Of a stretch of DNA of 19,591 nucleotides, positions 18,177 through 18,833 are shown piece after piece. The translations under genes were made by a program, and so were the position numbers. Source of the stretch: a virus (Duplodnaviria > Heunggongvirae > Uroviricota > Caudoviricetes); IMG/VR virus record IMGVR_UViG_2703718871_000002; one strand, given 5' to 3'. The notes under the pieces were generated by a model, which made no database searches, was not told where the DNA came from, and saw nothing but the letters and a program-made list of their open reading frames with translations. The stretch's first letter is position 1; the number at the start of each line of letters is the position of its first letter.

Positions 18177-18201
18177 ACTTAGGCTTTTTGCGATATAGCA
18201 C

Positions 18202-18231
18202 TTGATTTTGTCCGAATCTGTCATGTATCAT
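18202..18231 (+). promoter_or_regulatory. possible late promoter pR' / qut region downstream of Q
   Basis: TTGATT (18202-18207), 18-bp spacer, TATCAT (18226-18231), placed 26-55 nt after the Q stop and about 45 nt before the first terminator. No recognisable similarity to lambda pR'. Confidence 0.2.
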
Positions 18232-18272
18232 TATTGATAATGCGGAATAACGCTTGGATGATTTTGACAAAA

Positions 18273-18297
18273 AGCCCCCTCAAGGGGGCTTTTTTAC
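18273..18297 (+). terminator. intrinsic terminator (tR'-like), first of three in tandem
   Basis: AGCCCCC-TCAA-GGGGGCT stem-loop followed by TTTTTT. Confidence 0.7.
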
Positions 18298-18437
18298 TTC
18301 AATTGGCTAAAAAAACTTTCGAAATCACGAAGCTCAATCTCGTTTGCTGTTGATGAGTATTTTATCAGCGAAAAAATAGTTTACGATCGTAAAAATCTGC
18401 ATATCATGATAAGAGTGGTTACATTGCCACGCAGCCG

Positions 18438-18462
18438 AACCCGCCGATGCGCGGGTTTTTTT
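18438..18462 (+). terminator. intrinsic terminator
   Basis: AACCCGC-CGATGC-GCGGGTT stem-loop followed by a 7-T run. Confidence 0.6.
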
Positions 18463-18642
18463 GTACCCAGAATCCTGTGAGCTATACGGAAAGTACACAG
18501 AAAGGAAGATGCGACCGTAATTAATAACAAAATCTTAAAAATCGCATGTGGCACTATTAGTTTTCTAAATATTGTATATTTTAAGTATTGCAGGATAACC
18601 CTGTAACGAAGTTTGCGTAACAGCATTTTGCTCTACGAGTTT

Positions 18643-18672
18643 GCCAGCCTCCCCCAGTGGCTGGCTTTTTTA
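18643..18672 (+). terminator. intrinsic terminator
   Basis: GCCAGCC-TCCCCCAGT-GGCTGGC followed by TTTTTTA. Confidence 0.65.
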
Positions 18673-18682
18673 TGTCCGTAGC

Positions 18683-18793
18683 GTCAAAGCAGCAATGGCG
18701 CTGGGGCGTCGTGCAATTGGCGTTGAGCTGGAGAGCGGGCGTTTTGAGCAGACGGTCAGGGAAGTTCAGAATTTAGTTAGTCAGAACGGATGA
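18683..18793 (+). pseudogene. 3' remnant of a DNA methyltransferase gene (about 35 codons)
   Basis: Frame ending at TGA 18791-18793 reads ...VKAAMALGRRAIGVELESGRFEQTVREVQNLVSQNG, typical of the C-terminal AdoMet motif block of beta-class DNA methyltransferases. Upstream in-frame sequence is terminator and AT-rich non-coding DNA. Confidence 0.35.
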
Positions 18794-18795
18794 TA

Positions 18796-18824
18796 TTGCA
18801 GAATTAGTTACGTACCGTTATTAT
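18796..18824 (+). promoter_or_regulatory. candidate promoter of the tRNA operon (TTGCAG, 17 bp, TATTAT, GC-rich discriminator)
   Basis: TTGCAG 18796-18801, TATTAT 18819-18824, then CCTGCGCC before the first tRNA at 18834. Confidence 0.4.
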
Positions 18825-18833
18825 CCTGCGCCC

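Follow-up and report, generated by a model that had tools for sequence, protein, structure and literature searches.

A probable recombinant stack of two lambdoid late-control cassettes between Q and the tRNA genes of an Escherichia coli prophage

Why do three hairpins with U-tracts stand one behind another between a late antiterminator gene and a cluster of transfer RNA (tRNA) genes? The question is raised by the viral record IMGVR_UViG_2703718871_000002, a stretch of 19,591 nucleotides (nt) that was analyzed as a whole and is called the window below. The window is an Escherichia coli lambdoid prophage in which exo/bet/gam, cI/cro, the replication genes, ninG, ninH, Q, the tRNA genes, and nanS-p follow each other in this order. 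The three plus-strand hairpin/U-tract elements, labeled T1, T2, and T3, lie 3' of the Q stop codon (18176) and 5' of the tRNA genes (18834). We conclude that recombination has probably stacked two lambdoid late-control cassettes of different origin in the Q-to-tRNA interval, A (ending at T1) and B (containing T2 and T3), and that polymerase modified by the resident Q would have to read through both. This reading is built on the anatomy of the sequence, on homologies and conservation patterns, and on the published mapping of a late promoter (pR'), its terminator (tR'), and the small RNA (sRNA) StxS in near-identical DNA. The elements from which the question starts are the following.

17346-18176, plus strand: gene of the resident late antiterminator Q, 276 amino acids (aa); PF03589, E 2.4e-49; lambda Q structure PDB 7UBM, E 2.2e-37
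18269-18295, plus strand: T1, intrinsic terminator; stem 18269-18279/18284-18294 with the GC core GCCCCC/GGGGGC, loop TCAA, T-run 18290-18295
18437-18462, plus strand: T2, terminator; stem 18437-18444/18451-18458, T-run 18456-18462
18643-18671, plus strand: T3, terminator; stem GCCAGCC 18643-18649/GGCTGGC 18659-18665, 9-nt loop, T-run 18666-18671

The hairpins of T1, T2, and T3 have minimum free energies (MFEs) of -17.8, -14.9, and -14.5 kcal/mol, with z values of -3.7, -2.8, and -3.4 relative to shuffled sequences, respectively. A consensus terminator scan picks up T1 (on both strands) and T2 and skips T3, because the loop limit of the scan is 8 nt, whereas the loop of T3 has 9 nt. A stricter scan, which demands a hairpin energy of -10 kcal/mol or lower and closure at a run with at least five T in six positions, finds seven plus-strand terminators in the whole 19.6-kb window. 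Five of these seven lie within 18290-19341. Dinucleotide shuffles contain 2.07 terminators per strand per window under the same scan. The expectation for the 657 nt between Q and the tRNA genes is ~0.07, against three observed, corresponding to a ~40-fold excess (Poisson P ~5e-5). The view that the hairpins are chance GC-rich inverted repeats devoid of a termination function is favored only by the general false-positive rate of pattern scans. It is opposed by this excess, by the 3' end that Term-seq places at T3 in near-identical DNA, and by the T1-type hairpins of differing sequences that stand at a fixed distance in relatives. We give this view next to no probability, and chance is excluded as the origin of the hairpin cluster. 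The earlier note on this DNA, made from the letters alone, had placed three plus-strand terminators here and had called the upstream gene a Q antiterminator. Both statements hold: the terminators are present essentially at the claimed sites, with the energies and the clustering beyond shuffles given above, and the gene product matches PF03589 and the lambda Q structure.

An Rfam search of 18177-18833 at a permissive E-value gives no family reaching its gathering score, and no hit of any kind inside the StxS interval. The sub-threshold matches near T1, that is, Phe_leader (28.8 bits versus a gathering score of 55), Thr_leader, sroH, and P9, were rejected as matches to the terminator hairpin.

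Homology identifies the resident Q as a lambda-family antiterminator. Lambda Q (7UBM) aligns to it in two blocks, residues 1-124 and residues 180-268. Compared with lambda Q, the resident protein has an insertion of ~55 aa (residues ~125-179) with extra CxxCxGxG zinc-finger motifs, which give a weak DnaJ_CXXCXGXG match. The gene is 85% identical in DNA to Q of phi467, a phage carrying the Shiga toxin (Stx) type Stx2f. In collection searches covering several Enterobacteriaceae genera, the members of this Q family are 259-278 aa in length, except for one of 225 aa.

The origin of T2 and T3 is clear from the DNA that surrounds them. From 18357 on, the window is ~98% identical to 933W, and 18357-18900 shows 98.3-98.7% identity to 933W, VT2-Sakai, Stx1 phages, and further Stx phages, with matches in 363 phage records. 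The 933W annotation (GenBank AF125520) was transferred by the relation window = locus + 16856. The elements of cassette B are the following.

18357-18392, plus strand: remnant of the Q933W gene, its last 36 nt (coordinate mapping to AF125520)
18380-18407, plus strand: pR' of the 933W/Stx-phage type (pR'933W); -35 TTTACG, -10 TATCAT 18402-18407 (933W annotation and promoter scan)
18414-18671, plus strand: stxS gene, from pR' to tR', with the primary transcript StxS_L of 258 nt; processed form StxS_S at ~18598-18671, RNase E motif at 18585-18589
18421-18428, plus strand: qut element (933W annotation), overlapping the -10-like hexamer TACATT at 18420-18425

Q933W matches PF06530 (E 1.4e-50) and PDB 6P18 (Q21; E 1.7e-7). 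Since the resident Q is of the lambda family and Q933W is PF06530/Q21-like, the two cassettes are non-cognate. The -10 element of pR'933W ends at 18407, and the start site is located at ~18414. Over 544 nt, nine single-nucleotide differences separate the window from 933W; they spare pR' and the whole of 18357-18434. Five are inside the stxS transcript (+22, +56, +96, +135, and +137), and the last 120 nt before the U-tract of T3 are identical. A conserved leader hairpin, GTGG...CCAC, carries the hexamer TACATT in its loop, and this leader is kept in other prophages. In AF125520, T2 is recorded as a "possible rho-independent terminator" (mapped to 18440-18462) and T3 as the second terminator. 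Both are already annotated in 933W and are not new.

The identity of the interval between pR'933W and T3 follows from published transcript ends. In both Stx phages of the Sakai strain, the distance between the pR' start determined by differential RNA-seq (dRNA-seq) and the 3' end determined by Term-seq is 258 nt (Sy, Lan & Tree 2020; PMC7547250). In the window, 18414 + 257 = 18671, the last T of the T3 run, which matches the published spacing exactly. RNase E cuts the 258-nt StxS_L between GU and AUU (+173) to free StxS_S, a stable Hfq-binding sRNA of 74 nt (PMC7547250). The motif GUAUU is found at 18585-18589, corresponding to +172 to +176 of the pR' transcript, and the 3' part of StxS is kept even in a variant with 84% identity. 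T3 is evidently the mapped tR' of the Stx phages and the terminator of StxS, and the AT-rich stretch without an open reading frame (ORF) is evidently the body of the stxS gene. The earlier note had described 18300-18640 as AT-rich without a credible ORF. This is right as far as coding capacity goes, the stretch holding a minus-strand remnant of 21 codons (described later), the 36-nt Q933W remnant, and the sRNA gene, but it is stxS and not an empty spacer. The same note had suggested that a terminated late-promoter transcript could form an sRNA ending at the first terminator. StxS does form in such phages; however, it ends at the third. An 81-aa minus-strand ORF at 18381-18626, listed as "hypothetical protein" in several phage records such as OP797663 and PV189402, is antisense to stxS, has no independent support, and is probably an annotation artefact.

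StxS_S activates rpoS and represses stx1B, as shown for Sakai Sp5/Sp15, and StxS correlates with the 144-aa Q (PMC7547250). The stxS locus in the window is an exception to this correlation, because the adjacent intact Q is of the lambda family and not the cognate 144-aa Q933W. The adjacency of the cognate Q is an association and not a requirement for StxS synthesis, since pR' is constitutive. The likeness to the Stx phages 933W, VT2-Sakai (Sp5), and Stx1 phage Sp15 includes pR', qut, T2, the 258-nt spacing, the RNase E motif, and T3, and continues through a methylase remnant, the tRNA gene promoter pT, and ileZ-argN-argO. Unlike in these phages, however, only 36 nt of the cognate Q933W are left, a lambda-type Q with a candidate promoter and a terminator of its own is located upstream, and no stx genes follow, the place of which is taken by an STnc100-like RNA and nanS-p.

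The position of T2 relative to the transcript is informative. T2 occupies about +24 to +49 of the pR'933W transcript and is thus inside StxS_L. Since StxS_L runs through T2, T2 must leak, and unmodified polymerase has to pass it at an appreciable rate. Other E. coli prophages have the pR'-leader-T2 unit alone, lacking both the StxS body and T3, and a full-length methylase gene is often its neighbor. Such standalone units suggest that cassettes of this type originally had T2 as their promoter-proximal terminator, T3 being an additional one further downstream. Orphan 933W-type pR'/leader/T2 cassettes with no adjacent Q were also observed in other E. coli genomes, at L114 1501-1586, L115 1501-1565, and L116 1501-1786. 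Their neighbors are genes for a nucleoid-associated protein (L114) and a type I restriction S subunit (L115), and ompC (L116). Stranded late promoters seem to be common in decayed prophages.

How cassette B came to stand behind a foreign Q can be read from the sequence just past T1, where two features meet.

18294-18359, minus strand: remnant of a convergent gene, its last 21 codons and stop codon; translation YSSTANEIELRDFESFFSQLK followed by the stop, compared with the C-terminus YSSTADEIELRDFESFFSQLK followed by the stop in strain 90-3040
18357-18366, no strand: recombination junction, a 10-bp microhomology GTATTTTATC common to the Q276-type and 933W-type parents

In relatives, a convergent gene of ~306 aa is located past T1 (present in L005-L009). 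The remnant of this gene at 18294-18359 proves that a deletion/recombination event took place. The match to 933W begins at 18357, and the match to phi467 and 90-3040 ends at ~18365; upstream, 18100-18365 is ~85% identical to the post-Q region of phi467. In a single recombination at GTATTTTATC, the greater part of the convergent gene was lost, and of Q933W only 36 nt were retained. The Stx2f phage phi467 (LN997803) and related prophages share with the window the 276-aa Q type, the promoter-like block, and the T1 hairpin (~85% DNA identity). Past T1, phi467 and most relatives carry the convergent ~306-aa gene and then late genes or stx2f; in the window, the gene is deleted and the 933W cassette is fused in its place.

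A module similar to the Q/post-Q region of the phi467 type is found in 27 complete E. coli genomes, and StxS-like DNA in 1,031 genomes. Among 5,426 complete E. coli genomes, the exact stacked arrangement is found in three, each of them from a human isolate of Shiga toxin-producing E. coli (STEC). A related order was observed in the close relative E. coli 90-3040 (L006 3640-3745), where the convergent gene is kept past T1 and is followed by a diverged 933W-type cassette, StxS-like DNA, and T3. The diverged cassette has the -10 element TATTAT, the leader GTGGGGGTGCTTTGCCAC, and a T2 variant paired via G-U wobble. This order indicates that stacking of this Q family with 933W-type cassettes happened more than once. 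What stands here is a mosaic assembled from known parts, not a new mechanism.

What remains to be explained is the part between the Q stop codon and T1, which belongs to the resident Q. Two features are located there in front of T1.

18202-18231, plus strand: candidate pR' of the resident Q; -35 TTGATT 18202-18207, 18-nt spacer TTGTCCGAATCTGTCATG, -10 TATCAT 18226-18231 (promoter scan match)
18236-18241, plus strand: second -10-like hexamer GATAAT, candidate sigma70-dependent pause element; its A at position 2 and T at position 6 are invariant in 64 relatives

The candidate promoter predicts a start site at ~18238. To compare this region, ~100 loci with relatives of the resident Q were gathered from genomes of Enterobacteriaceae and from IMG/VR contigs, and 64 distinct sequences, from Citrobacter, Atlantibacter, Raoultella, Enterobacter, Buttiauxella, Pantoea, and others, were aligned. 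In these 64 relatives, conservation of the post-Q block CTTGATTTTGTCCGAA..TGTC.TG is complete or reaches at least 90%. The -10 hexamer, 18 nt past TTGATT, keeps T, A, and T at positions 1, 2, and 6 (TATGCT, TAAGCT, or TATCAT). The spacer TTTGTCCGAA..TGTC is also near-invariant, which is unusual for a promoter spacer. In five loci, the spacer is the variant TTGACTTTGCATAAA, and their Q proteins have V236Q, R237S, T238S, and T240S in common. Residues 236-240 are encoded at ~18051-18065 of the window, and the promoter spacer is located at 18208-18225. The co-occurrence of the spacer variant with these residues fits the spacer as the Q-binding element, and the spacer is likely to be that element for the resident Q. 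Residues 236-240 may determine the DNA specificity of this Q family.

A hairpin followed by a T-run is found 47-66 nt past the predicted start in 58 of 68 distinct relatives. The stems at this position are of several unrelated sequences: GCCCC/GGGGC, ACCCGCC/GCGGGT, ACCCTGCC/GGCGGGGT, and others. The T-run after the T1 hairpin on the plus strand is kept in the relatives, whereas the upstream A-run for minus-strand termination is not. A conserved promoter and spacer combined with a terminator that is fixed by position and not by sequence are the signature of a Q-controlled pR'/tR' cassette with the layout seen in lambda. From these patterns, we infer that the promoter of cassette A is active, that its spacer and the second hexamer are the Q-binding and pause elements, and that T1 acts as tR' for the resident Q, where termination is predicted to leave an RNA of ~58 nt. 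On this comparison, cassette A joins the lambda-type pR'/tR' class as a new, unexceptional member. A short inverted repeat is located just past the predicted start in many relatives (GCG-GAATAA-CGC at 18242-18253 in the window, GGAT-ACGTGC-ATCC elsewhere). A covarying RNA hairpin at 18242-18253 was considered and no consensus structure is claimed, as the pairing registers differ among lineages.

The likeness of cassette A to the Q-pR'-6S RNA-tR' arrangement of lambda consists of a homologous Q, a candidate promoter just past the Q stop codon, a downstream intrinsic terminator, a -35/-10 spacer conserved like the Q-binding element of lambda, and a second -10-like hexamer (nAnnAT; compare AACGAT of lambda pR'). 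The two differ in several points. The terminated RNA is 194 nt in lambda and predicted to be ~58 nt here. The offset from the -10 element to the second hexamer is 12 nt in lambda and 9-10 nt here. The spacer sequences are unrelated, and the resident Q carries the ~55-aa zinc-finger insertion.

Several points weigh against the reading of the interval as two stacked cassettes under the resident Q. The predicted start (~18238) falls within the second -10-like hexamer, whereas that of lambda precedes the hexamer, which is at +1 to +6 there; this overlap makes the assignment of the pause element uncertain. Three relatives (L010, L022, and L024) lack the conserved block 3' of Q. Termination at T2, which is not discussed by Sy et al. 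(PMC7547250), would give an RNA of ~49 nt. In addition, T1 scores on the minus strand as well and sits between convergent genes in relatives, so that it could serve mainly as an end-of-gene terminator. This last point can be extended to a rival explanation, in which T1 is merely a bidirectional end-of-operon terminator for Q and the convergent gene, the target promoter of the resident Q went with the deletion or is located elsewhere, and the late genes are silent or depend on Q933W of a co-resident Stx prophage acting in trans on the orphan pR'933W. Sources of such a protein are conceivable, since the host genomes (CP027586, CP075665, and CP027340) contain two to three additional matches to a Q933W-specific probe, and at least one genome has two more copies of the StxS region. 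On the other hand, the block behind Q shows conservation of the promoter type across genera, comprising the -35 element, the T-A-n-n-n-T hexamer, and the invariant spacer; the T-run is conserved on the plus strand but its minus-strand counterpart is not; and the spacer variant tracks Q residues 236-240. An alternative promoter of the resident Q beyond the convergent gene was sought in EC2001, where the stretch between the convergent gene and holin gives no consensus promoter match and no visible Q276-type block, and contains a terminator-like hairpin. The FAM21845 sequence, too, shows no visible Q276-type block there. We regard the explanation by a bidirectional T1 as unlikely.

The other rival is the picture drawn in the earlier note, that of a single late leader starting from one promoter next to Q, with three tandem terminators that are overcome by this Q, an sRNA ending at T1, and no internal promoter. 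All three hairpins are on the plus strand and 3' of Q, and a promoter-like block is indeed located upstream of T1. However, a second complete late promoter (18380-18407) stands between T1 and T2: an intact copy of the experimentally active pR' of Stx phages, in DNA that is the same as 933W over 18357-18434. A characterized sRNA begins at this promoter and ends at T3. Furthermore, T2 and T3 accompany the cassette of the Q933W type in hundreds of phages and do not accompany the resident Q. T2 and T3 belong to another cassette than T1, the claim of three tandem terminators of one leader fails, and we consider the single-leader picture quite improbable. The reading as two stacked cassettes, A for the resident Q and B of the 933W type, is preferred below.

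Downstream of T3, the window continues with the following features.

18680-18793, plus strand: C-terminal remnant of a DNA methyltransferase gene (pseudogene; RefSeq "incomplete; missing N-terminus")
18796-18824, plus strand: pT, tRNA gene promoter (933W annotation)
18834-19085, plus strand: ileZ (anticodon CAT), argN (TCG), and argO (TCT) (ARAGORN, Rfam tRNA, and 933W annotation)
19100-19125, plus strand: fourth terminator, 3' of argO (consensus scan; MFE -13.8 kcal/mol; in the 933W annotation, mapped at 19099-19122)
19162-19352, plus strand: STnc100-like sRNA element (Rfam RF02076, 139 bits versus a gathering score of 47, full length)

A 50-aa ORF at 18641-18793, without a Pfam match, was rejected as a gene, because T3 overlaps its first codons and the methylase remnant makes up its 3' part. 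The STnc100-like element is located between the terminator behind argO and nanS-p, and it overlaps the position where stxA starts in 933W (window-equivalent ~19176). Face-to-face terminators are observed at 19322-19381. The plus-strand hairpin (19322-19341) is the 3' end of STnc100, and the minus-strand hairpin (19381-19360, -19.2 kcal/mol) adjoins a truncated minus-strand pseudogene (RefSeq). Elsewhere in the window, the annotation at 9189-11608 on the minus strand, just left of the cI-like repressor gene, lists a restriction endonuclease of the BsuBI/PstI type and an Eco57I-like methylase; the two genes look like a restriction-modification moron in the early region of the prophage.

With two stacked cassettes, the late region would work as follows. 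In the lysogen, both promoters would be constitutive. Without Q, the sigma70 promoter of cassette A would give a short RNA of ~58 nt terminated at T1, and pR'933W would constitutively yield StxS_L to be processed to StxS, although stx and Q933W are both absent from this prophage. Upon induction, the resident Q would load at cassette A through binding to the spacer and the sigma-dependent pause, and the polymerase would become resistant to terminators. The modified polymerase would then pass T1, T2, T3, the terminator behind argO, and the hairpin at the 3' end of STnc100 to reach the tRNA genes, nanS-p, and the lysis genes. We infer the Q-dependent read-through and the expression of StxS in this host from the sequence layout and from the mapping in near-identical phages. 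The statement in the earlier note that all three terminators lie in the way of late transcription is retained on the condition that the promoter of the resident Q is located upstream of T1, as the comparative data indicate, and the fourth terminator behind argO has to be added to the list.

The late region might also have a second input. The late operon (tRNA genes, nanS-p, and lysis genes) could be turned on by the own Q through cassette A or by Q933W supplied in trans to the orphan pR'933W/qut, in addition to the supply of StxS without stx. We put this idea forward tentatively and hold it to be rather doubtful as a whole. The part in which Q933W of co-resident prophages switches on this prophage through the orphan pR'933W is speculative. 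If it is true, regulatory cross-talk between prophages would have been wired in by a single microhomology recombination, and StxS, an RpoS activator and Stx1 repressor, would be supplied by a prophage without stx and without the cognate Q.

The result mainly clarifies what was already known: the seemingly empty AT-rich stretch, together with two of the three terminators, turns out to be the late promoter, terminators, and stxS familiar from 933W. The stacked non-cognate arrangement itself is a rare recombinant of modest interest. For the 276-aa lambda-type Q family, which includes Q of Stx2f phages, the comparison provides a well-supported prediction of the late promoter, the Q-binding spacer, and tR'. 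The carriage of StxS by stx-negative prophages under a non-cognate Q is relevant where stxS or Q alleles are used as marks of toxin expression, and the orphan pR'933W offers a concrete route by which co-resident prophages in STEC may cross-activate each other.

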